A model generated the notes under the pieces. The model worked only from the letters and a program-made list of their open reading frames with translations, was not told where the DNA came from and ran no database searches. A program made the position numbers and the translations under genes. From the NCBI GenBank assembly GCA_017548605.1, contig JAFYZT010000045.1, positions 4,332-68,331 of the forward strand: a stretch of 64,000 nt of DNA, in the 5' to 3' direction. Source of the stretch: Prevotella sp. (GTDB taxonomy: Bacteria > Bacteroidota > Bacteroidia > Bacteroidales > Bacteroidaceae). Below are positions 21,867 through 38,090 of the stretch, one piece after another; the first letter of the stretch is position 1, and the number at the start of each line of letters is the position of its first letter.

Positions 21867-21940
21867 TATCTTTTCTAAATACCCTCCAAATATTTTCGCT
21901 ACTTTTTTCATTTTTTTAATTCTATTTTGCTAAAAACCTT

Positions 21941-22323: not shown

Positions 22324-22368
22324 GTTAAACGGATGACAAAAAAGTTCGTGGAATTCATGTTATCTTCG
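22324..22368 (+). promoter_or_regulatory. conserved phage-module promoter, copy 1 (terminase)
   Basis: GTTAAACGGATGACA, then exactly 37 nt from its first base to TATCTTCG (-7 box). Same architecture as copies at 32445 and 35221. Confidence 0.7.
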
Positions 22369-22395
22369 CCGCCGAAAACAGGATAACACGATACC

Positions 22396-24483
22396 ATGAC
22401 CAACACACAAATCCAAGATATCCTCGACGAGAACCGTCGTAGGAACAACACACTGCGAGCACCTTTCGACCCGTTGACCGGTGAGGGGAGTACGGGACGC
22501 CGCATTGCCGTCACCCTCCGCGACGTGCGCGACACCCCCACCACCTTCTTCCTGCCCGAAAGGATGATGGACGACCCGCTGGCACGTGAGGCACAACGAC
22601 TCGGTTCCATAGAACGGGCTGCACGGCAGTTGCAGATGCCGCTCCTCGGGCTCTCCGATATGCGCGACGCGTTCCACCGCCTACGCTGCCGTCACGACTT
22701 CCCATATTGGGCTGCCTCGCACGTGCGCATCAAACCCAAACAGGGTGGCGACGACGTGCCCTTCGTGCTCAACAGACCGCAGCGCCGCTTGGTGGAAGCA
22801 TTCGAAGAGATGCGTCTTGCCGACATGCCCATACGCGTCATCGTGCTCAAGGCGCGACAGTGGGGTGGCTCCACCGTCACGCAGATATACATGGCGTGGC
22901 TCCAACTGATACAACGGACGGGTCTGAACTCACTCATCGTGGGACATGTGAAGACGGCCTCGGCAGAGGTCTGCGGCATGTTCGACAAACTGATGGAGGC
23001 CTATCCCGAGGCGATGCTCTACCCCCGGGATGCCCAGCCGCCGAAGGGGATGAAGAAAATGACCGGCGACCGAAACACACGGTTGCTACGCCATATCCCC
23101 TCGCGTAACTGCAAGATCAAGGTGGGCTCGGCGGAGACACCCGACTCAGCACGGGGCGGCGACTCGGCTCTCGTCCATTGCACGGAAGTGGCTTTCTGGC
23201 GTAAGACACAGAACAAACAGCCCGAAGACATCATCCGCTCGGCATGCTCCGGCGCGGGCTACCTGCCGGGGACGATGATTGTCTATGAATCGACGGCCAA
23301 CGGCACGGGCAACTTCTTCCATCGCGAATACGAGGCGGCGAAGAAAGGATACTCGCAGTTCCGGCCGCTCTTCGTGGCATGGTGGCAGATAGAGCAGTAT
23401 GCACTGCCCTTTGACACCGACGAACAATGCACAGCTTTCGCAACGGCACTCTATGAGGGGCGCGACAGCGACACGGCGGAGGAACGGTCGCTCTCTGGAC
23501 GCTGCCTCTGGCGGCTGTGGACCATGGGCGCTACGCTCGAGGCACTGCACTGGTACACCCTGGAGCGGCGCAAATACGTGGACCAGGCCGACCTCGCCGC
23601 CGAGTTTCCCTCCGACGACATCGAGGCGTTCAAACATTCCGGCGCCAATGTCTTCGACAGCCGTGAGGTGGAGCGTATGCGGCCGCAATGCCGCCAACCC
23701 ACCCTGCGCGGTGAGTTGCTCGCACGGGGTGAGCGTGGCAGTGAGGCGCTTGCCGACCTGCGTTTCCAACAGAGCGACTACGGCTTGTTGTGGCTGTGGC
23801 AGCCGCCGGAGAAGAACGGGGAGGGTAGGGTGACCAACCGTTACCTGGTGGTGGTGGACATCGGTGGCCGCTCCATGAAGAGCGACTGGTCGGTCATCGC
23901 CGTCTTCGACAGGATGCCGCTGGCCGCCGGTGGCGTGCCCTGTCTCTGTGCCCAGTGGTATGGCCATACCGACATGGACCGTCTGGCGTGGAAGGCGGCA
24001 CAGGTGGCACGTTACTACGACGATGCGCTGCTGGTCATTGAGTCGAACACGCTCGAGACACATGGTCCCACGGCCTTCGCTTTCGAGGGTGGCGACCAGA
24101 GCCTGTTCATCCTCAACGAGATACGCGAGGTGTACGACAACCTGTATGCCCGTCCGCAGAGTGCCGACGAGATACGGCAGCGCGCCCCCGTACGCTACGG
24201 CTTCCACACCAATGTGCGCACCAAACCAGCCATCATCTCGACGCTTATCGCCGTGGTTCGAGACGGTCTCTACGAAGAACGCGACGAGCGGTGTCTCAAC
24301 GAACTGCTTACCTATGAGCGACGACCCAACGGCTCCTATGGTGCCATCGACGGATGTAATGACGACCTGCTCATGACGCGGGCCATCGCCCTCCATCTCT
24401 CTTACCATGAATTGCCGCCGCCCCGCCTCGTTCCCCACAAACTAACTCGTCCCCACAGACCACAAATCTTTGTTGAACATTAG
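22396..24483 (+). CDS. phage terminase large subunit
   Basis: 695 aa. FVLNRPQRRLVEAFEE...VLKARQWGGSTVTQIYMAW is the Walker-A-like context of Terminase_6-type TerL, and the C-terminal half (VVVDIGG...DWSV, NDDLLM) is nuclease-like. Confidence 0.85.
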   Translation: MTNTQIQDILDENRRRNNTLRAPFDPLTGEGSTGRRIAVTLRDVRDTPTTFFLPERMMDDPLAREAQRLGSIERAARQLQMPLLGLSDMRDAFHRLRCRHDFPYWAASHVRIKPKQGGDDVPFVLNRPQRRLVEAFEEMRLADMPIRVIVLKARQWGGSTVTQIYMAWLQLIQRTGLNSLIVGHVKTASAEVCGMFDKLMEAYPEAMLYPRDAQPPKGMKKMTGDRNTRLLRHIPSRNCKIKVGSAETPDSARGGDSALVHCTEVAFWRKTQNKQPEDIIRSACSGAGYLPGTMIVYESTANGTGNFFHREYEAAKKGYSQFRPLFVAWWQIEQYALPFDTDEQCTAFATALYEGRDSDTAEERSLSGRCLWRLWTMGATLEALHWYTLERRKYVDQADLAAEFPSDDIEAFKHSGANVFDSREVERMRPQCRQPTLRGELLARGERGSEALADLRFQQSDYGLLWLWQPPEKNGEGRVTNRYLVVVDIGGRSMKSDWSVIAVFDRMPLAAGGVPCLCAQWYGHTDMDRLAWKAAQVARYYDDALLVIESNTLETHGPTAFAFEGGDQSLFILNEIREVYDNLYARPQSADEIRQRAPVRYGFHTNVRTKPAIISTLIAVVRDGLYEERDERCLNELLTYERRPNGSYGAIDGCNDDLLMTRAIALHLSYHELPPPRLVPHKLTRPHRPQIFVEH

Positions 24484-24545
24484 CTCCCACCAGCTCCCCC
24501 GATTAGAGACCCCCACCAGCTCCCCCGAGGGGGAGAGAGAATAGC
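24484..24545. repeat. REP-like variant (CTCCCCCGAGGGGGAG + AGAGAATAGC), with partial duplicate
   Basis: ccaccagctcccccgagggggagagagaatagc. The same variant occurs at 34846-34884 and 37941-37978. Confidence 0.8.
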
Positions 24546-24560
24546 TTGTATATCTTTTTT

Positions 24561-24795
24561 CACAACGAATTTCACGAATAATGCGAATGGAACATCATTT
24601 ACGATAATTCACGGATAATTAACGGCAATTTACGTAAAAATCGAATATGAATAAACAACGAATTTTACGAATAACACGAATGGAACATCATTTACAATAA
24701 TTAGCGGATAATTCGCGGCAATTCACGTAAAAAAACACACGGCAATTCACGTAAAAAACACGAATATCAATTAACAACTAATTTCACAAATTGAG
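24561..24795 (+). repeat. two-plus copies of a diverged version of the ~96-bp unit
   Basis: cgaatttcacgaataatgcgaatggaacatcatttacgataattcacggataattaacggcaatttacgtaaaaa, then a second copy with agcggataattcgcggcaattcacgtaaaaaaa. Confidence 0.85.
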
Positions 24796-24807
24796 AACCT
24801 CTTTATT

Positions 24808-24842
24808 CCCCCTCTATTGGAGGGGGTTAGGGGGAGGCCCCC
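24808..24842 (+). repeat. REP-like unit
   Basis: ccccctctattggagggggttagggggaggccccc. Confidence 0.75.
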
Positions 24843-24879
24843 TTTTTAATATTTTAATCTTTTAATCTTTTAATTTTCC

Positions 24880-26466
24880 ATGTTTCCCATTCTTCGCCAG
24901 GCGGCTGTCTATTGGATGGCCATGGCACCTTTCAGAAAACAACGTGACCGCTGCAAACGCTACACCTACGGCGACCAGTGGCATGACCGCATCCGTGTCG
25001 ATGGGCATTGGATGACGGAAGAAGACTATATCCGTTCGCAAGGTAACGAACCTCTCAAGAACAACCTCATCCGCCGCCTCGTGCGCAACGTCATAGGCCT
25101 CTATCGTCAACAGGGGCAGGGGGCCTTTATTCGGGGGCAAGGGGCAGGGAGCATGGGGCAAGAGAATACCCCTCAGGTGCAAGATTCTTTCGCTCAGAGG
25201 CAGGGAGCCTTTATTCGGGGGCAAGGGGCAAGGAGCAAGGGGCAAGAGAACACCCCTCCGCTTTCCCCCTCCTTGGGAGGGGGGCAGGGGGAGGTTTTGC
25301 AGGGGGAGGTTCTCGAGCTTTCCTCTCGCACCCTCGAGGAGTTCCTTATCTCCGGCCTGGCGGTGCTGCGTAAGTCGTGGGGCACACGACGGGGCATCAC
25401 CGGGTGCTGGACCGACATGGTGTCGCCAAACGCTTTCTTCGTCGATAATATGGCGCGTGACCCGCGAGGGTGGGACATCTCGTGCATCGGCGAGTTGCAC
25501 GACCTTCCTTTTTCCGTGGTGTGCCGCCATTTTGCCTCGTCGCCCGAGGATATGCAGCGACTGCAACAAATCTATTCGGCCACAGACTATGATGACCGTG
25601 TGGCAGATGCCTGTGCATCGTTTGGACAACCGACAACCGCCATCGATTTCTTCCGTCCTCAGGGCAATCTGTGTCGTGTGGTCGAGGTGTGGCGTCTTGA
25701 GCAACAGCAACGCTACCGCTGCCACGACACGGCATCGGGTGAACTGTATCAGGTGACGGCCGATGATTATCCGTCGGTGGTGCTCCAGGAGAATGAGCGG
25801 CGCATGAACATCGGTCGTCGTCATGGAAGGAAAAAACAAGAGATAGCACTCATCCACGCCCAGTGGTTCATCGCCGAGCAGTGGCATTACTATTTCCTGA
25901 CACCCTTCGGCGACGTGCTCTGCCAAGGTTGTTCGCCCTACAACGACGGGGGACATCCCTATGTGTTCAAGGCCTATCCCTTCATCGATGGCGAGATACA
26001 CTCATTCGTGGCCGACCTCATCGACCAGCAGCGGTACACCAACCGGCTCATCACACTTTATGACTGGATAATGCGTTCCTCGGCGAAGGGTGTGCTCCTC
26101 GTGCCCGAGGAGTCGATACCCGACGGCTATTCCCTGGCCGACATCGCCGATGAGTGGGCACGTTTCAACGGTGTCATCGCCATACGCACAAAGAATGGGG
26201 CGCAGATGCCGCAACAGGTGGCCATGAATGCTACCAACGTCGGTATCAAGGACCTGTTGCAGACGCAGCTTGATTTCTTCGAGGATATTTCAGGGGTGGC
26301 AGGTGTGCTGCAGGGCAAGCATGACGGCAATTCCAATAACGCCTCGCTCTTCGCTTACCAGACAAATAATGCCACACTATCGTTGCTCGACATCTTGGAG
26401 TCCTTCCGCGCCTTCATCGACGAGGCTGCGGTCAAGGAACAACACCTCTACGAACAGTATGGATAG
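24880..26466 (+). CDS. portal-like protein carrying an in-frame ~200-nt repeat insertion
   Basis: The N-terminus RKQRDRCKRYTYGDQWHD and the later HPYVFKAYPFIDGEIHSFVADLIDQQRYTNRLITLYDWIMRSSAKGVLL...FEDISGVAGVLQG resemble podovirus-type portals. Codons ~78-145 (GQGAFIRGQGAGSMGQENTP...) are built from intergenic repeat families. Confidence 0.65.
   Translation: MFPILRQAAVYWMAMAPFRKQRDRCKRYTYGDQWHDRIRVDGHWMTEEDYIRSQGNEPLKNNLIRRLVRNVIGLYRQQGQGAFIRGQGAGSMGQENTPQVQDSFAQRQGAFIRGQGARSKGQENTPPLSPSLGGGQGEVLQGEVLELSSRTLEEFLISGLAVLRKSWGTRRGITGCWTDMVSPNAFFVDNMARDPRGWDISCIGELHDLPFSVVCRHFASSPEDMQRLQQIYSATDYDDRVADACASFGQPTTAIDFFRPQGNLCRVVEVWRLEQQQRYRCHDTASGELYQVTADDYPSVVLQENERRMNIGRRHGRKKQEIALIHAQWFIAEQWHYYFLTPFGDVLCQGCSPYNDGGHPYVFKAYPFIDGEIHSFVADLIDQQRYTNRLITLYDWIMRSSAKGVLLVPEESIPDGYSLADIADEWARFNGVIAIRTKNGAQMPQQVAMNATNVGIKDLLQTQLDFFEDISGVAGVLQGKHDGNSNNASLFAYQTNNATLSLLDILESFRAFIDEAAVKEQHLYEQYG
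25112..25312 (+). repeat. composite repeat insertion inside the portal-like ORF
   Basis: Two copies of gggcaggg-gcctttattcgggggcaaggggca-ggagca-ggggcaagagaa-acccctc, then ccccctccttgggaggggggcagggggagg. The same word families occur intergenically at 10599-10630, 29654-29673 and 36727-36759. Confidence 0.8.
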
Positions 26467-26482
26467 GCACAACCCTCTAGGG

Positions 26483-26594
26483 TGTTAATTCGCTTCGCTC
26501 AGAAGTTAAGCCATTACTCAGCTATATATTCAGTTGTTGTTCTGTACCATAGGCATACGGCTTAACTCCTTAACTTCTTAACTCCTTAACTTCA
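26483..26594 (-). repeat. TTAAC-word/hairpin element (MITE-like)
   Basis: gttaattcgcttcgctcagaagttaagccattac...catacggcttaactccttaacttcttaactccttaacttc. Confidence 0.75.
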
Positions 26595-26618
26595 GAAACA
26601 GGATCCCCCCTTTCCCAA

Positions 26619-27410
26619 CTATTCTTCTCCCCTCCCTTGGGGAGGGGTTGGGGGTGGGTATTTCACCTTTCTCCTCCATTTTGCGGCTTTTTTCACGTCG
26701 CGTTTCACCACCTCGCCTTTTTCATAGATATCGGCCAGGTAAAGTATGCAGCGTTCGTCACGCCGCTTGGCACCCTCTTCCAACCAGAAGAGGCCTCGTT
26801 TTACGTCTTTCTCCATGCCTATGCCTTCCATGGCGCATCGCCCGAGGTTATACAAGGCCTCGGGCATGCCCTGGGTGGCGGCTTCTTCATACCAGAACAG
26901 CGCTTTTTTGGCATCGCGGTCGATGCCCACACCCTGTTCCAGACAGTATCCCAGGTTGAATTGCGAGTCGGCATCACCCTGTGCGGCAGCCTGTCGGAAC
27001 CACCTGACGGCGGCTGCCTCGTCGCGCACCACTCCCACACCATTCAGGCATGCCACACCCATGGCATACTGGGCGGCGATATGTCCCTGCCGGGCGGCAC
27101 GTTCCATCCACACTGCCGACAGGCTGTCGTTACGCTCCACCCCGTCGCCTTGTGCATAACAGTCGCCCAGGGCATACTGCGCATCGGCATGACCCTGCAG
27201 GGCGGCCTGCTCATACCAATGGGCTGCCCGTGTGACATCCTTGCGGAGCCCCAGGCCACGGTCGTAACAATAGCCCAACGTATATTGGGCGGCGGTGTCT
27301 CCTTGTTCGGCCCGTTCCATCAGTTCCATGACGTTGATTCCCCGTCGCTGGGCAGAAAGCGGCAATCCCATCAACCAGGATATGGCGAAAAACAGAAAAA
27401 ACTTTTTCAT
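26619..27410 (-). CDS. Sel1-repeat (TPR-like) secreted protein
   Basis: Met 27410 gives the signal MKKFFLFFAISWLMGLPLSAQ, followed by about 6 Sel1 units (A--WY--AA-QG-A-AQY-LG-CY--G-GV). The C-terminal KYPPPTPPQGRGEE is read from a REP unit. Confidence 0.85.
   Translation of the reverse strand: MKKFFLFFAISWLMGLPLSAQRRGINVMELMERAEQGDTAAQYTLGYCYDRGLGLRKDVTRAAHWYEQAALQGHADAQYALGDCYAQGDGVERNDSLSAVWMERAARQGHIAAQYAMGVACLNGVGVVRDEAAAVRWFRQAAAQGDADSQFNLGYCLEQGVGIDRDAKKALFWYEEAATQGMPEALYNLGRCAMEGIGMEKDVKRGLFWLEEGAKRRDERCILYLADIYEKGEVVKRDVKKAAKWRRKVKYPPPTPPQGRGEE
26629..26659 (+). repeat. REP-like unit overlapping the 3' end of the Sel1 gene
   Basis: cccctcccttggggaggggttgggggtgggt. Confidence 0.85.
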
Positions 27411-27475
27411 GGCGCAAATATAGGGAGTTTTTCTATTTTTTTTCACAAATTGATTGGGAAAAAATATATTTTCAC

Positions 27476-27483
27476 TATCTTTG
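27476..27483 (+). promoter_or_regulatory. Bacteroidota -7 box (TATCTTTG) for FHA cassette
   Basis: tatctttg, 110 nt upstream of ATG 27594. Confidence 0.55.
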
Positions 27484-27489
27484 CATTGT

Positions 27490-27553
27490 CTATAGCTACT
27501 ATAACTATAAACTATAATCTATAACCTCTATAATATTTATAGCCTCTATAGCT
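27490..27553. repeat. CTATA word array (period ~9)
   Basis: ctatagctactataactataaactataatctataacctctataatatttatagcctctatagc. Confidence 0.8.
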
Positions 27554-27593
27554 TCAAAAACCCTAAATAGTAACATAAAACACATACATATTC

Positions 27594-28307
27594 ATGAAAA
27601 TTATCATAGGAAGAGAGGAACAGGGCTCAAGGCTCCATCTCGTGGCCATGAACGAACAAGGCCAGACCGTCAAGGATATCTGTCACGGACAACAACAGAG
27701 TGTCAACCAGTCGGTGAGCAGGCAGCACCTCAGTCTCACGCTTAACGACGATGGTACCTTCACTCTTGAGAACCTCAAGATGCAGAATATCACTTTCGTT
27801 AATGGCATGCAGGTGAACCGCACGATCGTGACACAGAATGACCGCATCGAACTGGGTCATGAGCGTTATCTCTTCGATTGGGCGGCGGTGAAACCGTTGT
27901 TGCCAAAGATTGCCGATGCTAAGCCGTTGAAAGCCGTATTCGATGAGTATGAGTTGGAAACGGCAAAAATCAATAAACAGCAACAGGTGTTCAATGCCAT
28001 GCGTGGCGGCACGAGTATCCTTACCATGGGTGCCATCGCCGTGGGTTTCATCTTTGGTCGCGATGGCGGTTTCAGCACCGTCACAGCCATCCTCTATGGT
28101 CTGGCCCTGTTCGCCTCGCTGTTCTTCACCGTCAAGTCGTTCATCGATGCCAGCAAACTGCCGGCCAAGCGCAAACGCATCACCGATGATTTCCGCCAGA
28201 ACTGTGTTTGTCCAAATGAGGAATGTCGCCATTATCTGGGTAACTATCAGTTCTACGAGAACCTGCCTAAGAAATGCCCCTATTGCCAGACGCAATTCAT
28301 AAAATAG
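27594..28307 (+). CDS. FHA-domain membrane protein with C-terminal zinc ribbon
   Basis: N-terminal FHA signature (IIGRE...VSRQHLSL...NGM-VN...DRIELG), two TM helices, then CPNEEC...CPYC. Confidence 0.8.
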   Translation: MKIIIGREEQGSRLHLVAMNEQGQTVKDICHGQQQSVNQSVSRQHLSLTLNDDGTFTLENLKMQNITFVNGMQVNRTIVTQNDRIELGHERYLFDWAAVKPLLPKIADAKPLKAVFDEYELETAKINKQQQVFNAMRGGTSILTMGAIAVGFIFGRDGGFSTVTAILYGLALFASLFFTVKSFIDASKLPAKRKRITDDFRQNCVCPNEECRHYLGNYQFYENLPKKCPYCQTQFIK

Positions 28308-28398
28308 TGACGAGTGACGAGTGACGAGTGATGAGTGACGAGTGATCATTCGCAACTCATAACTCGTAACTCATAACTCGTAACTCGTAATTCGTCAC
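28308..28398. repeat. heptamer word array forming a long imperfect palindrome
   Basis: gtgacga(g) x5, then the inverse words actcata/actcgta x6, ending in ttcgtcac. Confidence 0.75.
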
Positions 28399-28458
28399 TA
28401 AATCTCCGCCTTTCATGGAAAACGGGCGCAGATTCTTGCAATCGGCTTTGTGAATCAT

Positions 28459-28466
28459 TATCTTTG
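28459..28466 (+). promoter_or_regulatory. Bacteroidota -7 box (TATCTTTG)
   Basis: tatctttg, 50 nt upstream of ATG 28516. Confidence 0.55.
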
Positions 28467-28515
28467 CATCAGAAATCAATCAAATCAATAAATAACCCAT
28501 TAAAAAATTACCACT

Positions 28516-29643
28516 ATGAATCCAAATGAAAACACCCCAAACATGGGCCCCGTGAACAGCAATCCAGTGAATAACCCCGTGAATGAACCCCAGGAAGGCG
28601 GTTCCAACACCTGGAAGTATGTGACCATCGGCGGTGCTGCCGCACTGCTCGTAGGTGCAGGTACAGTCTATGCCACCGATGCTTTCGGTGCCCGTACAGC
28701 TATCTTCGGTGGCGATGACGCTGCCGCTCCTGCATCCACTGCTACTCCTGAAGTAGCCGCCGAGACAACAGCGGTCACGGATGGCTCTGAAGCCGCCAAG
28801 ACCACCGAGAGTGCAGAAGCTACTGCCGATGCAACTCCCGCTGCTGATGCTGCTGCCGATGCCGCCGCAACAGATGCAGGAATACAGGTGGAAATCTACG
28901 ACCACGCTCCTGTGGCTCATGTAGGTCAGCACCTCAGTTTCGCTGATGCCTTCGCCGCCGCCCGCGCACAGGTGGGTCCCGGTGGTGTGTTCCACTGGCA
29001 CGGCCATGACTATGGTACATATTATGAGACAGAGTGGGATGCTATGAGCGATGCCCAGCAGGCACAATATGAGGCCAGCGCCGCTACGCCCGCCCACGCC
29101 ACACATCCTGTAACACCGCATTTTGTGGCTGAGGCTCCCGTTGCTGTTGTGAGCGATGGCATGAGCTTTGCCGACGCTTTCGCCGCTGCCCGCGCACAGG
29201 TAGGTGCCGGTGGCGTGTTTGAGTGGCACGGTGGTGTGTTCAGCACCTATTATGAGAACGAATGGGACGGTATGACACCGCAGCAGCAGCACTATTTCAC
29301 CGCTCAGGTACATACCGAGCACGTGCCGCACCACACCCATTATTATGCCGATGCCGATGGTGGCGTACACTTCAAGGCTGTGGAGACCTTCGGCACCGAG
29401 CAGTACGACTACGACGATGTGACGGTGAAGGCATTGGACGATGCCGACAGTGGCTCGCTCACTACCATACAAGAGGTCGAAGCCTCGGATGGCGAGATGC
29501 ACATCGACGTGGCTTCCGACGGACAGACAGCTTTTGTCGACGTTGAGAACGACGGTATCGTGGACATGACCTTCACACCGATTGATGAGGCAAACCCTTT
29601 TGACGGTGCTCCGCTCACTGACGACGGTTCCATGATATTGTAA
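28516..29643 (+). CDS. membrane-anchored protein with duplicated ~55-aa module
   Basis: One TM helix (WKYVTIGGAAALLVGAG), an Ala/Thr-rich linker, two copies of SFADAFAAARAQVG-GGVF-WHG--Y-TYYE-EWD-M and an acidic tail. Confidence 0.75.
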   Translation: MNPNENTPNMGPVNSNPVNNPVNEPQEGGSNTWKYVTIGGAAALLVGAGTVYATDAFGARTAIFGGDDAAAPASTATPEVAAETTAVTDGSEAAKTTESAEATADATPAADAAADAAATDAGIQVEIYDHAPVAHVGQHLSFADAFAAARAQVGPGGVFHWHGHDYGTYYETEWDAMSDAQQAQYEASAATPAHATHPVTPHFVAEAPVAVVSDGMSFADAFAAARAQVGAGGVFEWHGGVFSTYYENEWDGMTPQQQHYFTAQVHTEHVPHHTHYYADADGGVHFKAVETFGTEQYDYDDVTVKALDDADSGSLTTIQEVEASDGEMHIDVASDGQTAFVDVENDGIVDMTFTPIDEANPFDGAPLTDDGSMIL

Positions 29644-29707
29644 TTGAAGCGTTAAGGAGCAAGGGGCAAGAGATTACCTCACAGGCAATTGTCTAAACTC
29701 CAGAAAA

Positions 29708-30211
29708 ATGAAAAAAGTAAATGTAAAGTGTAATTGCGGACAGCAGTTCGTAGCAACCTTTCGTGACGATAACGCCGCAGCGGGAACAGTTACCTGTCCC
29801 GCTTGCGGCTCTCGTTTGAAAGTGATTGTGCCGCAGTCTAAGCCACCCCAGCCCTCTGTCTCCAGCGAGACGAAACTGCCCACGGGTGCTTTTGCCCAGC
29901 CGGGTTCGCTCATCTGTGGGGGACGGGAGTATCCGCTGTCTGTGGGCGATAATATTGTTGGTCGCAAAGCCGCAGGTTCATCGGCCCATATACAGCTTGA
30001 GGTGAACGATCCCTACATGAGCCGCTCTCATCTGCTTGTGAGGGTGGTACGTGCCGGCGACGGAAGCATCACCACCTTCGTTTCGAACTATAAAAACATG
30101 AACACCACCCTGGTCAACCAGCGTTTGCTGGGTAAGGTCGATGAGGTGGTGGTCAAGGATGGCGACACCATCCAACTGGCCAACACCGTCGTGATGTTCA
30201 AAAACAGCTAA
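29708..30211 (+). CDS. zinc-ribbon plus FHA-domain protein
   Basis: CNCG...CPACG at the N-terminus. The C-terminal FHA signature is NIVGRK...MSRSHLLV...NTTLVN...GDTIQLA. Confidence 0.8.
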   Translation: MKKVNVKCNCGQQFVATFRDDNAAAGTVTCPACGSRLKVIVPQSKPPQPSVSSETKLPTGAFAQPGSLICGGREYPLSVGDNIVGRKAAGSSAHIQLEVNDPYMSRSHLLVRVVRAGDGSITTFVSNYKNMNTTLVNQRLLGKVDEVVVKDGDTIQLANTVVMFKNS

Positions 30212-30212
30212 T

Positions 30213-30240
30213 ACCCACCCCGACCCTCCCCAAGGGAGGG
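30213..30240 (-). repeat. REP-like unit, inverted orientation
   Basis: acccaccccgaccctccccaagggaggg. Confidence 0.85.
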
Positions 30241-30305
30241 AGTTCAGATTCATCACCCGACACTCGTCACTCGTAACTCGTCACTCGTAACTCATCATTA
30301 TAACC

Positions 30306-31718
30306 ATGCTCATCACCCTGTCAAAACCGTTGTTTATCCAAGAATTGGGCAAGAGGTCCAATCAAGAGGATTCGTATTTCATGTCCGAAGCGACCCATGA
30401 GGGCTCTTCGCCGTTTTTCATGGTTTGTGATGGCATGGGGGGACATGACAAAGGCGAGGTGGCCAGTGCTCTGGTATGCCAGTCAGTGTCGTCCTTTATC
30501 ACTGAGCAGATGGGGCAGGGCAGGGCATTCGATGATGCCTTGTTCAACGATGCGCTTCAATACGCTTACGGAGAACTCGATAAACTGCCAGTCGATGGCA
30601 AACGACCAGGCACCACACTCACTTTCCTCTGTTTTCATCGTCAGGGAGTCACCACGGCCAACATCGGCGACAGCCGTATCTATCACCTGCGTCCGAAAGA
30701 GGGGAAGATACTCTTCCAGTCGCGCGACCACTCGTTGGTTTTCGACCTCTACCTGATGGGTGAGTTGTCATTCGACGAGATGGCGACCTCACCTCAGAAA
30801 AACGTCATTACCAAGGCGCTGATGCCTGGCGAGGAAAACCATCACCGTGCCGACATGGTGCATATCGGCGATGTGCAGCCCGATGACTGTTTCCTGCTTT
30901 GTTCCGACGGTTTACTGGAACGGCTCAGCAACGAACAGCTGCTTCAGATTTTTTCTCATTACGATGATATGGAAGAGGTGCGCCGCTTGCTCATCGAGGC
31001 ATCGGATGATAATGGCGACAACCATACTGCCATTCTTCTCAAAGTGGACGAAGTGGAAAAAGAGGCCGGCGAGATGGTCTCCGACGATGAATACTCGTCG
31101 TCTTTCAATGCCATGAATGTGCATCCCATGGGTGGCAGTCAGGAAACACCTGTCGCCCCTGCCACTCCTGTCGCAGAAACACCTGAGAGTCCTAAGCCCA
31201 GTGCATCCAATACGTCGAAAACGTCCAATACGTCCAATACGTCGAAAACGCCTACAACGCCGAAAAAGTCGCGAAAGGGTTCTCCTGTGCTCACTGTTGT
31301 CATGGCCGCCTTGTTGGTCGGTGTGTTGGCAGCCATCGGCGTGCTCCTTTTCAAGAAATCACCGAAGAAGAGTTCTTCTCTCTCTCAACCGGCAGTGGAA
31401 GCAGTTGCCCCGGCCGACTCGACGGCCTTGGCATCTCCCGACACTTTAACTGTGTCAGGCAATGATGCTCCTGTGGCTGCTGAAGCTCAGGCTGCTCCTG
31501 CCGAAGCTTCCACGATGACCGACACCATTCACATGACGACGGCTCCACAAGCCACACCTACTCCGCGAACCACACCGAATCCTACGCCCACTCCGCGAAC
31601 AACACCGAATCCCGAACCGCAAGTATCGGCAGCCCCGCATACCACTTCCAGTCCGACGCCGGCAACCTCAAATGCTGCCCAGCAGCGCCGCGATAACCTC
31701 CGCGACCGCAGTAAATAA
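30306..31718 (+). CDS. PP2C-family Ser/Thr phosphatase with TM helix and Pro/Thr-rich tail
   Basis: MVCDGMGGHDKGEVAS, GDSRIY and CSDGL motifs, then a TM segment (VLTVVMAALLVGVLAAIGVLLF) and a low-complexity tail. Confidence 0.85.
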   Translation: MLITLSKPLFIQELGKRSNQEDSYFMSEATHEGSSPFFMVCDGMGGHDKGEVASALVCQSVSSFITEQMGQGRAFDDALFNDALQYAYGELDKLPVDGKRPGTTLTFLCFHRQGVTTANIGDSRIYHLRPKEGKILFQSRDHSLVFDLYLMGELSFDEMATSPQKNVITKALMPGEENHHRADMVHIGDVQPDDCFLLCSDGLLERLSNEQLLQIFSHYDDMEEVRRLLIEASDDNGDNHTAILLKVDEVEKEAGEMVSDDEYSSSFNAMNVHPMGGSQETPVAPATPVAETPESPKPSASNTSKTSNTSNTSKTPTTPKKSRKGSPVLTVVMAALLVGVLAAIGVLLFKKSPKKSSSLSQPAVEAVAPADSTALASPDTLTVSGNDAPVAAEAQAAPAEASTMTDTIHMTTAPQATPTPRTTPNPTPTPRTTPNPEPQVSAAPHTTSSPTPATSNAAQQRRDNLRDRSK

Positions 31719-31732
31719 AAGGAGTTATCGCT

Positions 31733-32010
31733 GGAAGTTAAAAAGGAAGTTATGAAGGAAGTAAAAGGGGAAGTTATAGAAGGAAGTTATGCACTTCGTG
31801 CAGGACAATAGTCTTGAAGGGTAAAAGGGTAAAAGTTGTGGGCTGAGTAATGTCCATTTTAACTTCCAATTTAACTTCCATGAGCGAAGCGAATTAACTC
31901 CCACTTTAACTCCCGATTAAACAAAAACTTCCATGAGCGAAGCGAATTAACTTCCCCTTTTACTCCCATTTTTACTTCCTTTTATAACTCCCCTTTTACC
32001 TTTTTACCCT
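31733..32010 (+). repeat. ~150-nt repeat, copy C, plus inverted partial copy (3' of PP2C gene)
   Basis: Core at 31733-31902, as in A and B. It is followed by a second catgagcgaagcgaattaac block and by the reverse complement of the ggaagtaaaa/gggtaaaag words. The whole can fold into a long hairpin between convergent genes. Confidence 0.8.
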
Positions 32011-32011
32011 T

Positions 32012-32416
32012 TTACTTTTTTACCCTTCCACATAAAATCACATACGCGCTTTTCTCTGTCAGGTAGAAGCGTGGTGCAGGTTGTGCTATCACCTCCCACA
32101 CCAGATGGTTGATGCGCTCGTGTTGTCTTTTACTTCGCAGGTGATGCACCCGACGCACTATCTCCTCATACATCATCCGTTGCATGGGCAACATCTTGGC
32201 GGGACGGTGCCCCGACAGCCATTGGTTGACCACACGAACAGCTCGTTCCTCGCTCACATAAAACCGTTCTGCCGGCATGGCTAAGGCGGCTCTGATAGTG
32301 TCATGCGAAGTGGTCAGTTCCTTACGTTGATAAGCTTGTTTGTACGCGCGAACCAAGTCGCGGTTGCGCGCCTCATGAAATTCCGAGGCGCTACGTGTTT
32401 TCTTGTGTGTTTTCAT
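32012..32416 (-). CDS. small basic protein with duplicated P-RFY--E motif (possible DNA-binding regulator)
   Basis: Start set at Met 32416 (MKTHKKTRSASEF...). Has an internal repeat, PAERFYVSEERAVRVV / PAPRFYLTEKSAYVIL. Divergent from the scaffold-like gene promoter. Confidence 0.5.
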   Translation of the reverse strand: MKTHKKTRSASEFHEARNRDLVRAYKQAYQRKELTTSHDTIRAALAMPAERFYVSEERAVRVVNQWLSGHRPAKMLPMQRMMYEEIVRRVHHLRSKRQHERINHLVWEVIAQPAPRFYLTEKSAYVILCGRVKK

Positions 32417-32444
32417 GGTTTTTTTCCACAAAATTACTCCCAAA

Positions 32445-32489
32445 GTTAAATGGATGACACACTTTTCACGGGAAAAGACAATATCTTTG
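32445..32489 (+). promoter_or_regulatory. conserved phage-module promoter, copy 2 (scaffold-like gene)
   Basis: GTTAAATGGATGACA, with 37 nt to TATCTTTG. Confidence 0.7.
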
Positions 32490-32510
32490 CCACGAACAAA
32501 ACCAATAACC

Positions 32511-33143
32511 ATGAAAACAATAACACAACAAACTGAACAACAGAGCCTTGACAATCTCAAGGAACAGGTAATGAACCGGATAACATCACGTCATCCCCAA
32601 CTTGACTCAGCCGATGAAAAAGCACTTTTCCAAGCCGTTTACGACGATTACGACGAAAACGACGTTTTGCAGGAACTCTACGATGAACTGGTGGAAAAGA
32701 TGGAGGCGATGACCACCGCCAAAAAGAAAGAAGAGGCCGAGTACGAAAGCAATCTCGACCAGACCATCGTCGCCATCGAGCAGATGAAACAAGAGGAGTC
32801 AGCCGATGGTGAGCGCATTGACGAGGCGGTGGCGTGGTTGCAGAAGGTGGGCGATGAGGTGGCCCGGGGACGGTTGCTCCCTGATGACATCCGGATGGTG
32901 ATGAAAGGAGCGGCTTACGATGTCGATGTGGCCGCCGCCGACCATGATGGAGAGGTGCGCGGACGCAACTACGTCATCGAAGAACACCTGCGTACTGCTA
33001 AGGATACGCCCGCCGACGTGCCAGCCCTGCGCGGCACGGGCGGTATGAACACCACCCAAGCGCTTCCTCGCGAAGTCCTCGGTGCTTTGGTAGGCACCAC
33101 CCGTCCCACTATCTGGGAACGGGGAAAAGAAAAGAGGTATTAA
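32511..33143 (+). CDS. acidic coiled-coil protein, scaffold-like (tentative)
   Basis: Start set at ATG 32511, downstream of the -7 box at 32482-32489. 210 aa, very acidic and helical. Its position between portal and capsid genes fits a scaffolding protein. Confidence 0.55.
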   Translation: MKTITQQTEQQSLDNLKEQVMNRITSRHPQLDSADEKALFQAVYDDYDENDVLQELYDELVEKMEAMTTAKKKEEAEYESNLDQTIVAIEQMKQEESADGERIDEAVAWLQKVGDEVARGRLLPDDIRMVMKGAAYDVDVAAADHDGEVRGRNYVIEEHLRTAKDTPADVPALRGTGGMNTTQALPREVLGALVGTTRPTIWERGKEKRY

Positions 33144-33146
33144 AAT

Positions 33147-33176
33147 ACCCACCCCTTCCCTCCCAAAGGGAGGGGG
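33147..33176 (-). repeat. REP-like unit, inverted orientation
   Basis: acccaccccttccctcccaaagggaggggg. Confidence 0.85.
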
Positions 33177-33270
33177 TTGGAATGTTGAGTTTTAAATGGT
33201 GAATGTTGACGAGTTGTTGAGACATATGTCGAAAAATTTTCGCCTCGCGATGTAGAATTGTTCAATGAAT

Positions 33271-33362
33271 AATTCATCACTCACCACTCAACATTCACCA
33301 CTCAACATTCACCACTCAACATTCAACATTCAACACTCAACATTCAACATTCACCACTCATC
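33271..33362. repeat. heptamer word array (cattcac/cactcaa/cattcaa)
   Basis: About 12 consecutive 7-nt words. Related arrays at 30247-30300, 36816-36858 and 37990-38040. Confidence 0.8.
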
Positions 33363-34783
33363 TTCCTATACAGTCGGCTTTTCGTGCTTCGTAGTGCTTG
33401 GTTGGAGCAGCAGAACGCCTGCGCCTTGCGATTGTCATCGATGTCATAATGGTCCATCACCACGTAGAACGTCTCTTTGGGTGTCAGCGGTGTTGAGGCA
33501 TGCGCCAACTCTTCGTAGAGCGGTTTGTTGATGGCTGGCAACACCTTCAGCAGTGCCGTCTCTTCCCGCTTGCCGAATTGGCTGATGTTATCGCCGCTGA
33601 CCAAGGCGTTGAGCACGTCGATACCCTCTTTCGTCTCCGTCACCGAGGTGAGCAAACGCTCTACTTCCCTCCTTTGGTTGGCGGAGGCGAATTGCGTGAG
33701 TTGGCGTTGCATGTGTTGCAACTCTTCCACACGGCTGTCCACGGTCTGCTTCAACTCGCTGATGGTCTGCTCTTTCTGTCCGAGTAGCGAGCGCACCTCG
33801 TGCAGCGTGTCGTTGAAGCGGAGCTTCAGCGACCGTTGCTTCCTGTCGAACCACCAGGTGATGGCGAGCACCAGGGCGAGCAGTGCCACGAGAGCCACGA
33901 CGAACCACAGCCGTTGCCGTTCCTTCTCCAGTGTCAGCAACTCACGGTCGTAGCGGTTTTGCAGGTCCACCATCTCCACGTTCTGTTGGCTGATGGCTAC
34001 CGAGTCATCGATAGCCTTCCATTGTTTGTAGGCCTCAAGAGCCCCACGGAAGTCGCCTTTCCTTTCGAGATATTCACTGCGCAGGAGGTAACGGTTGCGG
34101 CGGAGGGTGGAACCGCCGTCAGTGGCCAACGTGTTCATGATGATTTCCGCCTGGTCGTCGCGCCCTTGTTTGATATACACCATGCAGAGCAGCGACAGCG
34201 CATTGCCCATGGCTGAGGAGTCCTGTGCGAGGAGTGCCGCCCGATAGGCATGGTTCTCCGCTTCAGGCAGTGAGTCGGTGAGCATCTCGTAGTAAGCAAT
34301 ATTTTTCATGATGCACGACCGCTGGCTGTCGTCGGCCTCTTTGTAGAGCGCTGCCGCCCTAAGGTTGACGCGCCATGCCGAGTCGTTGAGCTGTAGGTTG
34401 TAGAGGGTGTTGGCCTGATTGATGAGCACATCGACCACCAGCTCCGGACGTTGCGTCTTTTCCGCAAAGCCAAGGGCTTTCTCCTGATAGTCGAGGGCGC
34501 GTGAGTAGGCTCCGCTATGTTCGTTCACCCATCCTATGTATTGGCAAATCTGGTATTTCTGCTTGTCGTCGTCGAGCTGTGGCAGCAGCTCCTCGGCACG
34601 CTTCAGCTGAAGCATGGCCTCGGAATATTCGCCACGGTCGATGAGCAGCACCGCACTGTCGAGACGTACCTCGGCCTGTGCCTGCGGTGAAGCAGGCGAC
34701 GATCCGTCACGGCACGAGGAGAGGACACAGAGTGCCACGCCGGCTATCATCAATACCATCTTTCTATACATACTGCTATACAT
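33344..34783 (-). CDS. TPR-repeat membrane protein with coiled-coil and C-terminal HTH-like region
   Basis: Signal/lipobox-like N-terminus (LSSC), TPR units, a TM helix (LWFVVALVALLALVLAITWWF) and a C-terminal segment resembling LuxR-type tails. The start may be 34771 or 34759 because a -7 box (34788-34796) abuts 34783. Confidence 0.75.
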   Translation of the reverse strand: MYSSMYRKMVLMIAGVALCVLSSCRDGSSPASPQAQAEVRLDSAVLLIDRGEYSEAMLQLKRAEELLPQLDDDKQKYQICQYIGWVNEHSGAYSRALDYQEKALGFAEKTQRPELVVDVLINQANTLYNLQLNDSAWRVNLRAAALYKEADDSQRSCIMKNIAYYEMLTDSLPEAENHAYRAALLAQDSSAMGNALSLLCMVYIKQGRDDQAEIIMNTLATDGGSTLRRNRYLLRSEYLERKGDFRGALEAYKQWKAIDDSVAISQQNVEMVDLQNRYDRELLTLEKERQRLWFVVALVALLALVLAITWWFDRKQRSLKLRFNDTLHEVRSLLGQKEQTISELKQTVDSRVEELQHMQRQLTQFASANQRREVERLLTSVTETKEGIDVLNALVSGDNISQFGKREETALLKVLPAINKPLYEELAHASTPLTPKETFYVVMDHYDIDDNRKAQAFCCSNQALRSTKSRLYRKMSGEC

Positions 34784-34845
34784 ACTGCAAAGATAAGAAA
34801 AATTAAAAAAATAAAAAATTTAAAGATTAAAAAAAATAATAGAAG

Positions 34846-34884
34846 CTCCCCCTCCTACTCCCCCCGAGGGGGAGAGAGAATAGC
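34846..34884. repeat. REP-like variant (AGAGAATAGC type)
   Basis: ctccccctcctactccccccgagggggagagagaatagc. Confidence 0.8.
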
Positions 34885-35063
34885 CTGTAAATTCTTTTTC
34901 ACTCATTGTTGTCTGAACCATACAACGAATTATACGAATTATTACACAATGGTGAGCGAAGCGAACACGAAAAATCGCAACTTGTTGCGTCAAACGATAC
35001 TGCGACCGGCAGGAAAAGGGAGCAGTACCTTAGTGAATGAGCGACGAGTAGGAGCGGTTACAT

Positions 35064-35215
35064 CCCCTCCCAATGTTGGGAGGGGCTTGGGGAGAGTAGG
35101 TACCCTCCTTAGGCAAGGAGGGGCGGGTGGTTGTGAAAGCAAACTATCTCCTTAGGCAAGGAGGGGCGGGTGGTTGTGAAAGCAAACTATCTCCTCGGGG
35201 GAGCAGGTGGGGGGC
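35064..35215. repeat. cluster of REP-like hairpins including a ~44-bp direct duplication
   Basis: cccctcccaatgttgggagggg; 2x ctccttaggcaaggaggggcgggtggttgtgaaagcaaactat; ctcctcgggggagcaggtgggggg. Confidence 0.8.
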
Positions 35216-35220
35216 TAGTA

Positions 35221-35265
35221 GTTAAACGGATGACAAAAAAATTCTGGAAAAGAGCCTTATCTTTG
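35221..35265 (+). promoter_or_regulatory. conserved phage-module promoter, copy 3 (capsid gene)
   Basis: GTTAAACGGATGACAAAAAAATTC, with 37 nt to TATCTTTG. 20 of the first 24 nt are identical to copy 1. Confidence 0.7.
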
Positions 35266-35336
35266 CCCCCGTTATCGGATAACATTCAATCAAAACCATC
35301 AAAAACACATTTAATCATTTAACACCAACACACATC

Positions 35337-36686
35337 ATGGCAACAGAAAACAATCTCTATCAGGGTGGTGCGGAGAAATACAAGGGGACGACAGAACCCA
35401 ACCCCCTCAATCCGCAATTCACCGACAATCCCGATGGTATCCTCACCGAGACCGTGGCACGCGAAATCGCTGATCCGGAGATGTACCAGAAAGACATCGA
35501 CGAGCGCATCACCAAAATCCGTCCCATGGCGACACCCGTCGACCAGATATCACGCTTCGCCACGCTTCAACAGGCATCATCGTTCGAAGTGAAGTACTAC
35601 AGCGTTGGCACCCGTCCGGTCATGACGACTCTCACAACAGCTGTCACGGCGAGTGCTTCGGCCACCAGCGTGCCTCTCGAGGTGGCCGACCCTGACATGT
35701 TCACGCTCGACGATACCATCCGCGTGGTGGGTGTCAAGGCCATCACCGACTTTCGTGGCACCGCCTACAGCAACAACGACCCCACGACACCCGACCTCTG
35801 CCTGTGCGTCTGTGGAAAGACGTCGCAGGGCCAGCCCATCGTCTTCGCTGTCAACGGCAATGTGGTGAACCGACAGAACATTGGCGTACCCAGCATAGCG
35901 GCAGGCACCAAACTTATCCGCATGGGAAAGAGCTGCGGCGAGCTTGACGTACAGACGGGACGATTCAATAACCTGCCCACCTCGGAGCTGCAGTATTGCC
36001 AGAACTTCATGGCGCAGATAGAGCAGTCGACGCTTGACAAGATAGCCAATAAAGAGGTGAACTGGGGCTTCTCCGACCTGGAGGAAGACTCCATCTACGA
36101 CATGCGACTGGCGATGGAAAATTCCTTCCTCTTCGGTGACATGAACATGGTGAAGCACACTACCAAGGACGGCATGGCGCAGTGGTTCACCAAAGGCATC
36201 TGGTGGCAGGCAGGCAAGGACATCGAGGTGGGCACGACCGTCAATGGTGTGACGACCATCACCGACAATGACCTCGTTGACATCTCACGCGACCTGTTCG
36301 TGGGCACGGGCATCGGCAACAAACGCAAGGTGTTGCTCTGTGGCAGCGACTTCCTCGCCGCACTGTCGAAGATTGATTCCGACAAGTTCCGCCTGAAAGA
36401 TACCGTGGAGGTGTGGAACCTGAAGTTCAAGAGCTGGGAGACCGACTTTGGCGAGATTCTGGCGATGCACGATGAGCTGTTCGATATGAACGGCATGGCC
36501 GACTGTGCCTTCGCCCTCGACCCGGAGTTCCTGACGAAAAAGACGCACCTGAGCTGGAGCCGTAACATCCTCGACCTGAAGAAGGCGGGAGTGCGTAACA
36601 CCGACGCCGTGGTCATCCAGGAAATCAGCTGCCTCTACCTCCGCTATGCCAAGGCCCATGCCCGCCTGCGCCTCGCAGAGGAATAA
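35337..36686 (+). CDS. HK97-fold-like phage major capsid protein (tentative)
   Basis: 449 aa. The N-terminal DIDERITKIRPMATPVDQISR segment and the overall pattern resemble major capsid proteins of the SU10/DUF5309 type as I remember them. Carries the conserved promoter module upstream. Confidence 0.65.
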   Translation: MATENNLYQGGAEKYKGTTEPNPLNPQFTDNPDGILTETVAREIADPEMYQKDIDERITKIRPMATPVDQISRFATLQQASSFEVKYYSVGTRPVMTTLTTAVTASASATSVPLEVADPDMFTLDDTIRVVGVKAITDFRGTAYSNNDPTTPDLCLCVCGKTSQGQPIVFAVNGNVVNRQNIGVPSIAAGTKLIRMGKSCGELDVQTGRFNNLPTSELQYCQNFMAQIEQSTLDKIANKEVNWGFSDLEEDSIYDMRLAMENSFLFGDMNMVKHTTKDGMAQWFTKGIWWQAGKDIEVGTTVNGVTTITDNDLVDISRDLFVGTGIGNKRKVLLCGSDFLAALSKIDSDKFRLKDTVEVWNLKFKSWETDFGEILAMHDELFDMNGMADCAFALDPEFLTKKTHLSWSRNILDLKKAGVRNTDAVVIQEISCLYLRYAKAHARLRLAEE

Positions 36687-36862: not shown

Positions 36863-37078
36863 ATGAAAACTTATATTGCCAAATCCCATATCTGCATCAA
36901 TGTGATGATGCCCGAGGGCGTACGTCACGTCAGGTTCATTCCCTGTACCCTCGGCAACAGCTACCTCATGACCGACGACCCCATCCTCCAGATGGCCCTC
37001 GAATCGCATCCTCGCTACGGAACACTATTTATTGAAAACCCACCCCGTCCCTCCCCAAGGGAGGGTGTTCTTAGATGA
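36863..37078 (+). CDS. small hypothetical protein downstream of capsid gene
   Basis: 71-aa ORF. The last ~13 codons (ENPPRPSPREGVLR) are read from REP unit 37038-37065. Confidence 0.45.
   Translation: MKTYIAKSHICINVMMPEGVRHVRFIPCTLGNSYLMTDDPILQMALESHPRYGTLFIENPPRPSPREGVLR
37038..37065 (-). repeat. REP-like unit inside the 3' end of ORF 36863-37078
   Basis: acccaccccgtccctccccaagggaggg. Confidence 0.85.
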
Positions 37079-37938: not shown

Positions 37939-37940
37939 GA

Positions 37941-37978
37941 GCCCCCCTCCAACTCCCCCGAGGGGAAGAGAGAATAGC
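37941..37978. repeat. REP-like variant (AGAGAATAGC type)
   Basis: gcccccctccaactcccccgaggggaagagagaatagc. Confidence 0.75.
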
Positions 37979-38046
37979 ACACATAGTAATTTATGACACT
38001 CAACACTCATCACTCAACATTCAACATTCATCACTCGACCTTACCA

Positions 38047-38077
38047 CTCCCTCCCTTCGGGAGGGCCGGGCTGGGTT
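38047..38077 (+). repeat. REP-like unit
   Basis: ctccctcccttcgggagggccgggctgggtt. Confidence 0.8.
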
Positions 38078-38090
38078 TACTTTATCATCC

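Follow-up and report, generated by a model that had tools for sequence, protein, structure and literature searches.

The 64,000-nucleotide (nt) stretch of DNA analysed here (the window) comes from the Prevotella sp. assembly GCA_017548605.1 and carries, between two blocks of host genes, a phage-like island of about 30 kb (16400-46400). Within this island three promoter modules were found, each consisting of a 15-bp box that ends exactly 22 nt upstream from a host-type -7 box, and these modules precede only the terL-portal operon, the gene for a scaffold-like protein (g210) and the capsid-fibre operon. We regard the cis element, its spacing and its regulon as firmly established. On balance, we favour the view that the modules are late promoters for structural genes, which would be used by the host sigma factor together with a probably phage-encoded and lineage-specific activator. 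This class of promoter appears to have been retained in a decayed island of a rumen Prevotellaceae-type chromosome.

Promoter modules in the window

The 15-mer GTTAAAYGGATGACA was detected as exactly three exact copies in the window, at 22324-22338, 32445-32459 and 35221-35235, all on the plus strand, and not a single match was obtained in 100 dinucleotide-preserving shuffles. When up to three mismatches were allowed, one extra site appeared (10043, minus strand), which lies within a host open reading frame (ORF) and corresponds to chance level. The -7 boxes TATCTTYG start at 22361, 32482 and 35258, each exactly 37 nt from the first base of the motif, in precise agreement with a preliminary description made from the letters of the sequence alone; the motif is thus separated from the TA of the -7 box by 22 nt in all three modules. 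An independent repeat search grouped these modules into a single 51-nt family (61-76% identity).

Copy 1 of the box (GTTAAACGGATGACA, 22324..22338) stands before terL-portal, and its -7 box (TATCTTCG, 22361..22368) lies 27 nt before the terL ATG. Copy 2 (GTTAAATGGATGACA, 32445..32459; -7 box TATCTTTG, 32482..32489) precedes g210, and copy 3 (GTTAAACGGATGACA, 35221..35235; -7 box TATCTTTG, 35258..35265) precedes the capsid operon, all of these elements being on the plus strand. The terL, g210 and capsid genes begin with start codons at 22396, 32511 and 35337, respectively, 21-71 nt past their -7 boxes. Copies 1 and 3 share the sequence AAAAAA(G/A)TTC..GGAA, as had been noted before, and in both of them GGATAACA is located 49-50 nt downstream of GGATGACA.

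The sequence TAnnTTTG is enriched across the window (44 observed vs 25.9 expected). Each module carries this -7 box on the coding strand before a gene; the copy at 22361 has C at position 7, and either T or C is found at this position among the orthologues. The other -7 boxes in the island, at 27476, 28459, 34795 (-), 41038, 45124, 21866 (-) and 32448 (-), lack the motif, confirming the earlier observation, and the box is absent from the CI, FHA, PP2C, TPR and AraC promoters of the window as well as from all host -7 boxes in its 34 kb of host DNA. The housekeeping promoter of Bacteroidota consists of TTTG at -33 and TAnnTTTG at -7. The modules resemble this promoter in the -7 box, the orientation and the distance to the start codon, but differ from it in that the 15-bp box is present in place of the -33 TTTG. 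No TTTG was found 19-21 nt before the TA in the three window copies, nor in the 17 promoters of close relatives and 49 promoters of distant relatives described below. The CI promoter in the same window has the -33 TTTG, forming a canonical -33/-7 pair.

As a separate feature, a perfect 43-nt duplication lies directly upstream of box copy 3.

Conservation of the modules in close relatives

A search with the portal protein identified three rumen Prevotellaceae genomes (loci L061-L063) with portals 70-77% identical to that of the window and with the gene order kept, and look-ups of homologues of g134, the small protein encoded divergently from box copy 2, added loci L227, L228-L231, L232 and L234. 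Orthologues of copy 1 were found in L061, L062, L063 and L227, and those of both copy 2 and copy 3 in L061, L227, L228, L232 and L234. The promoters of the window, L061-L063, L227, L228, L232 and L234, 17 in total, were aligned on the -7 box. Conservation over this set was restricted to AAC[GC]GAT[GA]ACAAA and TAnnTTYG, and the spacing between the box and the -7 box was 22 nt in 17/17 promoters. The first four bases of the 15-mer are less conserved (variants such as TTTT, ATGT and CCGA), the sequence of the 22-nt spacer is variable except for a weak AAA about 9 nt before the TA, and the leaders diverge. The preliminary description had proposed that a conserved TTC..GGA pattern replaces the -33 element; this proposal could not be maintained, since only the weak AAA persists in the 17 promoters and the spacer of distant relatives is nearly free of information. 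Spacers of orthologous promoters are more alike than those of paralogous promoters, which points to the three copies being old paralogues, in which nothing but the box and the -7 box would have been kept by selection.

All three copies of L061 have C in place of G at position 8 of the box; this change was considered as an instance of co-evolution and rejected, because L228 and L234 mix G and C within one genome. Likewise, the apparent lack of terL and portal in L228-type islands was not accepted as real: they have the arrangement of L063 with its cargo gene of 1109 residues, and the locus simply ends there. In L234, terL and portal are apparently missing. The capsids are 93-95% identical among relatives whose portals reach only 70-77%.

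Sequences resembling one half of the box were also found downstream of the terL and capsid -7 boxes. The terL leader contains tandem 8-mers, GAAAACAG-GATAACAC-GATACCAT (22374..22397, plus strand), that resemble the GATGACA half; these 8-mers (GATAACAN) are kept in L061 and L062, with 3-4 units in L063 and 2 in L227. The palindrome GTTATCGGATAAC (35271..35283, plus strand) lies immediately downstream of the capsid -7 box, where the capsid transcript is predicted to begin. It occurs once in the window and is kept in 6/6 relatives while the remaining leader varies, its counterpart in L061 being GTTATCGATAAC. The half-site of the palindrome, GATAAC, resembles the GATGAC of the box, and both the palindrome and the terL 8-mers repeat a GATRAC half. 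The palindrome is possibly an operator.

The box in the distant phage family

The portal search gave in total 59 loci in representative genomes and 276 in IMG/VR. Distant relatives with portals about 50% identical accounted for 56 further genomic loci and 80 of the 276 IMG/VR loci. They originate from Bacteroides, Phocaeicola, Alistipes, Muribaculaceae, Rikenellaceae, Parabacteroides and others, and group with the cultured Bacteroides phages BS-TP4, BKO1-TP3 and BF1-TP2. The genes are arranged there as portal (plus strand), terL and the g134 homologue (minus strand) and, divergently from these, the g210 homologue, capsid and g287 homologue (plus strand). The divergent region contains, in nearly all distant loci, CGTAAAAAGATAAAC followed after 22 nt by TAnnTTTG, and the divergent -7 box CAAAGTTA is also kept; the position homologous to box copy 2 is occupied in 95 distant loci. 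For 49 unique distant scaffold promoters, the information content peaked at -36 to -24 relative to the TA and was about zero in the spacer. The boxes can be aligned position by position (GTTAAACGGATGACA in the window, CGTAAACGGATAAAA in L066 and CGTAAAAAGATAAAC in L068); the family consensus is GTAAA-NN-G[AT]TAAA, of which AAC[GC]GAT[GA]ACAAA is the variant of the window clade.

A search of related genomes with a weight matrix had been recommended in the preliminary description. With a matrix trained on scaffold promoters only, the box CGTAAATAGTTAAAC was detected before the portal gene in 127/136 loci. When a score of 10 or more and a neighbouring -7 box were required, 212 sites had a spacing of 22 nt and 15 a spacing of 21 nt, while no other spacing between 10 and 35 nt was represented by more than 2 sites. 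The background of the matrix was 4 matches in 496 kb of unrelated viral DNA, as against 238 in 2.4 Mb of family DNA.

On the BS-TP4 genome, the 41 kb outside the annotated early/replication and lysogeny regions were scanned. Four box promoters were detected, before the portal gene gp4, the scaffold gene gp10, gp18 and gp28-gp27-gp26; the operon that starts with gp18 contains the endolysin gene, and gp26 is putatively a structural protein. The operon of gp9 (g134) and terL in BS-TP4 is without the box. Across the family, the box thus marks structural and lysis-related operons. A motif shared in front of phage structural operons is in itself expected and belongs to ordinary phage biology. The module of the window is not a local invention but the local variant of an ancient, family-wide element, and its three copies are this family element after rearrangement: terL now lies before the portal gene and shares a single box promoter with it, and the scaffold and capsid genes have been separated by insertion of a TPR gene, so that the capsid gene has its own box promoter.

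The motif might instead have been part of an abundant dispersed repeat, which had been named as the finding that would speak against a regulatory role. The exact full 15-mer in IMG/VR and the combination of motif, spacing and -7 box in JGI metagenomes gave only chance matches, which were single or lacked a -7 context or neighbouring island proteins; the motif is therefore not an abundant dispersed repeat, and no further relatives came from these searches. An IMG/VR scan with a shorter core, also mostly at chance level, yielded two further phage lineages with their own box variant at all of their box promoters, TTAACGGATAA three times per genome in L260/L267 and TTAACCGATA three times in L246.

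No promoter motif described for this phage family was found in a literature search. The family is large, and the box with its fixed 22 nt offers a simple means for annotation of late operons, including those of degenerate chromosomal remnants. BS-TP4 itself was reported in 31% of a set of 930 gut viromes (PMC12694917).

Nature of the box reader

As the box occurs repeatedly in each genome, its variation could be compared between promoters. In 44 unique genomes, the scaffold and portal boxes agreed with each other at the variable positions 1, 4, 9 and 15 to an extent that was reached in 0/1000 shuffles. For the five flanking bases on each side, mostly no excess of co-variation was observed, one flank position being marginal (15/1000). 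Metagenome-assembled genomes (MAGs) of Muribaculaceae hold both a C-type box (L070) and a G-type box (L092, L093, L099), and the C-type box spans five host families. The box type follows the phage lineage and not the host family. Because box variants are shared within a genome and differ between lineages, these findings suggest that the box is read by a sequence-specific factor that changes with the phage lineage, and a phage-encoded reader would fit the co-variation better than a conserved surface of RNA polymerase.

Retention of the host-type -7 box argues that the host sigma factor reads this element, and disfavours a phage polymerase or an unrelated alternative sigma factor. The lack of TTTG 19-21 nt upstream and a spacing that is exact to the base point to a protein that binds adjacent to the polymerase. 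The preliminary description had postulated a dedicated regulator or an alternative sigma factor or activator for the three operons; the regulator gains indirect support from the co-variation of the boxes, while the alternative sigma factor has become unlikely.

Two regulators encoded in the island were not supported as the reader. The CI/LexA-like protein, which had been put forward as a candidate, is not linked to the box: no homologue is encoded in L227, L063, L228 or L234, all of which keep box promoters. The control region of the CI-like gene (21820-21910) contains two copies of the repeat ATATTTTCGCT, which differs from the box; the copies plausibly represent an operator set for the CI-like repressor, unrelated to the box. 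The AraC-type protein was rejected as ancestral reader, since the box-bearing distant loci and the scanned part of BS-TP4, which also has the box, gave no detectable homologue.

Besides terminase, portal, scaffold, capsid and g287/gp13 as structural proteins, the window and BS-TP4 have g134 (gp9), g91 (gp29), g135 (gp27) and g896 (gp26) in common. The BS-TP4 homologue of g135 is annotated as AbrB/SpoVT-like; sequence searches against Pfam and PDB gave no confirmation of this annotation.

g134 as a candidate reader

The g134 gene (32012..32416, minus strand; phrog_27246) encodes a small, basic, all-helical protein with an internal duplication. Its promoter includes a divergent -7 box, TAACTTTG (32441..32448, minus strand), of which the TA overlaps the first four bases of box copy 2. 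The gene was found in 101 related loci and is invariably transcribed away from the scaffold promoter, and of the four shared proteins listed above g134 is the only one that adjoins a box in every genome. The AlphaFold model of g134 is of high confidence and shows a duplicated three-helix unit (predicted local distance difference test score, pLDDT, 88; predicted template-modelling score, pTM, 0.81). By Foldseek, no significant match to this model was found in PDB and BFVD, and no small-terminase structure was matched in PDB; sequence searches of Pfam, NCBIfam and PDB were likewise without a match, and all source names are 'hypothetical'. An exhaustive profile search detected 1,321 cluster representatives (clusters at 50% identity), and nearly all of the best 150 representatives are stand-alone proteins of about 130-150 residues.

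From its conservation and position, g134 is the leading candidate for the reader, and only a candidate. It had been named as one of two candidate regulators in the preliminary description; its constant place beside the box and its conservation speak for this proposal, while no informative match of sequence or structure has come to its aid. The geometry of the divergent region would let a bound activator repress its own gene. As a tentative and rather doubtful extension, the g134 family could be the late activator of this phage family and a new class of activator in Bacteroidota phages, in which the two repeats of the monomer would read the two halves of the box, replace recognition of the -33 element and shut off the divergent g134 promoter. 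The box provides a concrete bait in the search for a late-gene regulator, which would be the first from a Bacteroidota phage.

The g134 homologue of the distant family overlaps at its end with a gene for a rhomboid-like membrane protein (17978-18891 in BS-TP4), after which terL follows. A database representative, P0058, is a fusion of g134 and rhomboid with 292 residues; it matches this neighbour gene of BS-TP4 and is uninformative.

Possible mode of promoter activation

Based on these features, we propose the following mechanism for the box promoters. The host primary sigma factor would read the host-type -7 box TAnnTTYG, and the asymmetric, bipartite 15-bp box, which ends exactly 22 nt before the TA in place of the -33 TTTG, would lie at roughly -48 to -34 if transcription starts a few bases past the -7 box. 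A lineage-evolving, sequence-specific protein would bind to the box and recruit the host RNA polymerase from this adjoining position, by activation of the class-II type like that at the Mu C/Mor or T4 MotA box, and all structural operons would be switched on together.

A fixed box that replaces the -35 element, with the host sigma factor reading the downstream element, is likewise characteristic of the Mu Pm/Plys promoters (Mor, C), the P2/P4 late promoters (Ogr, delta), the T4 middle promoters (MotA) and the staphylococcal promoters under RinA/ArpU/LtrC. As in activator-dependent late promoters, the box stands at a fixed distance, 22 nt in 3/3 window modules, 17/17 promoters of the clade and 212 of about 240 family sites, and it is restricted to structural and lysis operons in the window and in the scanned 41 kb of BS-TP4. 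The position of g134, a small phage gene next to the terminase gene, recalls that of rinA. The present system differs from these in its asymmetric box, where Mor and C bind dyads, and in its host, a member of Bacteroidota with a -7 box instead of a -10 box. No protein homology was found to the Mor/C, Ogr/delta, MotA or RinA/ArpU/LtrC activators. The class II sites of AraC/MarA are also similar, being asymmetric, bipartite sites of 15-20 bp that abut the -35 region, and an AraC-type protein is encoded in the island; the difference here is that the AraC-type gene is without a detectable homologue in the box-bearing distant loci.

Several observations weigh against an activator of this kind. The test of co-variation cannot fully separate selection from shared ancestry, and the host labels of MAGs are unreliable, several loci being obviously mis-binned. 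As to g134, it matches no DNA-binding family, solved structure or viral model, and its location upstream of terL in the distant family would suit a small terminase subunit just as well. The box of the distant family is A-rich and sits where a proximal UP element would. To our knowledge, the P_BfP promoters of phage B124-14 are the only characterised Bacteroides phage promoters, and these carry upstream GTTAA elements together with a -7 box. Five of them (P_BfP1-5) and a widely used engineered form, P_BfP1E6, reportedly exist, with the consensus GTTAA-N4-7-GTTAA-N34-38-TAnnTTTG. When this consensus was relaxed to N30-40, exactly five sites were detected in the B124-14 genome (L200; 4246, 6458, 6755, 24575 and 38021 (minus strand)), all on the coding strand, presumably corresponding in number to the P_BfP promoters. 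In later papers, the P_BfP1E6-type promoter is described as having 'UP elements' and a -7 consensus and as being strong and constitutive in various Bacteroides species, meaning that the host polymerase alone can read an architecture of this sort.

As an alternative to an activator, the host RNA polymerase could read the box directly, either as an unusual -33 element through sigma region 4 or as a UP-like element through the C-terminal domain of the alpha subunit. In this case, the modules would be intrinsically strong, constitutive phage promoters like those of B124-14, and silencing in the lysogen would come from elsewhere, for instance from the GATAAC palindrome or the repeats after the -7 box. 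We hold this main alternative to be rather unlikely. In its favour, besides the five B124-14 promoters and the properties of P_BfP1E6, are the A-rich distant box AAAAAGATAAA, which falls at about the proximal UP subsite of E. coli (positions inferred), the retention of the box in phages of hosts from several Bacteroidales families, and the conserved palindrome or repeat at the predicted transcript start in the window clade. The likeness to B124-14, i.e. Bacteroides phage promoters with a TAnnTTTG -7 box and upstream GTTAA(A)-like elements, several per genome and on the coding strand, is however limited by the register. The two GTTAA elements of B124-14 are 4-7 nt apart, whereas a single GTTAA and a GATGACA (GATRA) half are present here, and the distance from the last GTTAA to the TA is 34-38 nt there but an invariant 32 nt here; moreover, B124-14 is a lytic siphovirus unrelated to this temperate family, and its promoters are reported to be constitutive. 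For a UP element, an A/T-rich tract that is read by its shape and tolerates changes of sequence would be expected; the distant box is A-rich, the core of the window-clade box, CGGATGAC, is not A/T-rich, and the variants of the box are lineage-specific. Direct reading by the host also accounts poorly for the co-variation of the boxes within genomes, for their differences between phage lineages of one host family, and for the lack of the box at every host -7 box in the 34 kb of host DNA. Finally, the structural operons of temperate phages are normally kept off through their requirement for an activator. Should the modules depend on an activator, they would provide a tightly off, phage-inducible promoter part for engineering of Bacteroides and Prevotella, complementing the constitutive P_BfP1E6.

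An improbable alternative is that the box is a repressor operator over the -33 region, keeping the structural operons silent until induction. The box does overlap a contact position of the polymerase, copy 2 overlaps the -7 box of the divergent g134 promoter, and a related half-site forms a true palindrome past the capsid -7 box. The box itself is asymmetric, however, and its distance to the -7 box is base-exact in more than 200 sites, which fits stereospecific activation better than occlusion; promoters without a -33 element look weak and not in need of repression, and related loci that keep box promoters lack a CI-like homologue. It is highly improbable that the box is a packaging (pac) or other DNA-level site for g134 as small terminase with only incidental proximity to promoters: g134 does adjoin a box in every genome and, in the distant family, is immediately followed by terL, but each genome has three or four boxes, all of them in coding-strand orientation at exactly 22 nt from a -7 box and in front of different operons, and the g134 model is without a small-terminase match in PDB.

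Organization of the phage-like island

The first 16 kb of the window consist of host genes (aminotransferase, TonB-dependent receptor, BspA-type leucine-rich repeat protein and DUF3256), and its last 18 kb of host genes with two cobalamin riboswitches (51186-51383 and 62919-63102). A gene for a Bacteroidota small RNA of the FopS family (16311-16381) is located at the left edge of the island. In the island, a leftward gene group encodes the CI/LexA-like protein (21028-21807), a lipoprotein, g91, g135 and the 896-residue g896; terL, a P22-type portal, a cargo block, g134, g210, TPR, an SU10-type capsid, g287, a collagen-repeat fibre and the AraC-type protein are also encoded. Because no integrase, replication, tail (including tail-tube) or lysis genes were recognised in it, the island looks like a degenerate or dependent element, not a complete prophage. 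A prophage in decay, a satellite that depends on a helper and a domesticated particle are all conceivable.

The earlier calls of the terminase, scaffold-like and capsid genes were borne out by phrog and Pfam matches and by homology to BS-TP4. The large terminase subunit terL (22396..24483, plus strand) matched phrog_2 (E = 1.8e-20) and is 54% identical to BS-TP4 gp7. The gene for the P22-like portal (24880..26466, plus strand) is without a box promoter of its own and is presumably read from promoter 1. The scaffold-like g210 (32511..33143, plus strand) is a homologue of BS-TP4 gp10, which lies directly upstream of the capsid gene there. The SU10-type major capsid protein (35337..36686, plus strand) matched PF17236 (E = 1.7e-32) and phrog_26635 (E = 5e-210), with 67% identity to BS-TP4 gp11. 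Downstream in the capsid operon are g287, the homologue of BS-TP4 gp13, and the collagen-repeat fibre gene (37075..40337, plus strand). A 36-nt x3 array lies within the listed g287 ORF, and the true start of g287 is therefore probably near 37330.

The cargo block (27594-31718), located between portal and g134, encodes an FHA protein, a 375-residue protein, a zinc-ribbon FHA protein and a PP2C phosphatase, of which the C-terminal half gave a weak match to the PADLOC model PD-T4-6. The block is 70-95% identical in L061, L063, L227, L228 and L231 and partial in L062, where the contig ends in FHA2. It has its own promoters without the box, and may be a phospho-signalling or anti-phage module of the element. 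Next to it, the plus-strand ORF 26637-27524 ('g295') was rejected as a gene, being probably on the wrong strand: both strands are open, and a minus-strand gene (26619-27446) has a -7 box at 27422 (-), a signal-peptide-like start and agreeing gene calls in relatives. This gene is divergent from the FHA gene, and the segment is inverted in L063 and L228.

A second, different promoter module was observed before the TPR gene (33344-34783, minus strand) and the gene of the AraC-type regulator (41048-42241). The promoters at 34795 (-) and 41038 (+) share TTTTAATCTTTWAAT, 22 nt and TATCTTTGCAGT, and a similar promoter with TATCTTTGCAG was found before an integrase gene in L228 (6575, +). The module points to a second, putatively co-regulated set of cargo genes in the island.

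Repeats are abundant between the genes of the island. Tandem arrays of 93-96-nt units were found at 24543-24766 (2 copies, between terL and portal) and 40434-40918 (about 4 copies, between the fibre and AraC genes), and their sub-repeats CGGATAATT and CGGCAATTCACGTAAAAA bear a faint likeness to both halves of the box; a related element lies in L061 between g134 and g210 (17980-18370). Nearly all intergenic gaps of the island are filled with repeats (35105-35195, 37211-37317 and many further sites), among them short tandem repeats with 7-8-nt units such as CACTCAA, CTTAACT and TTTTAATC as well as G+C-rich hairpin repeats of the form CCCTCCCTTYGGGAGGG...GGGTGGGTATC.

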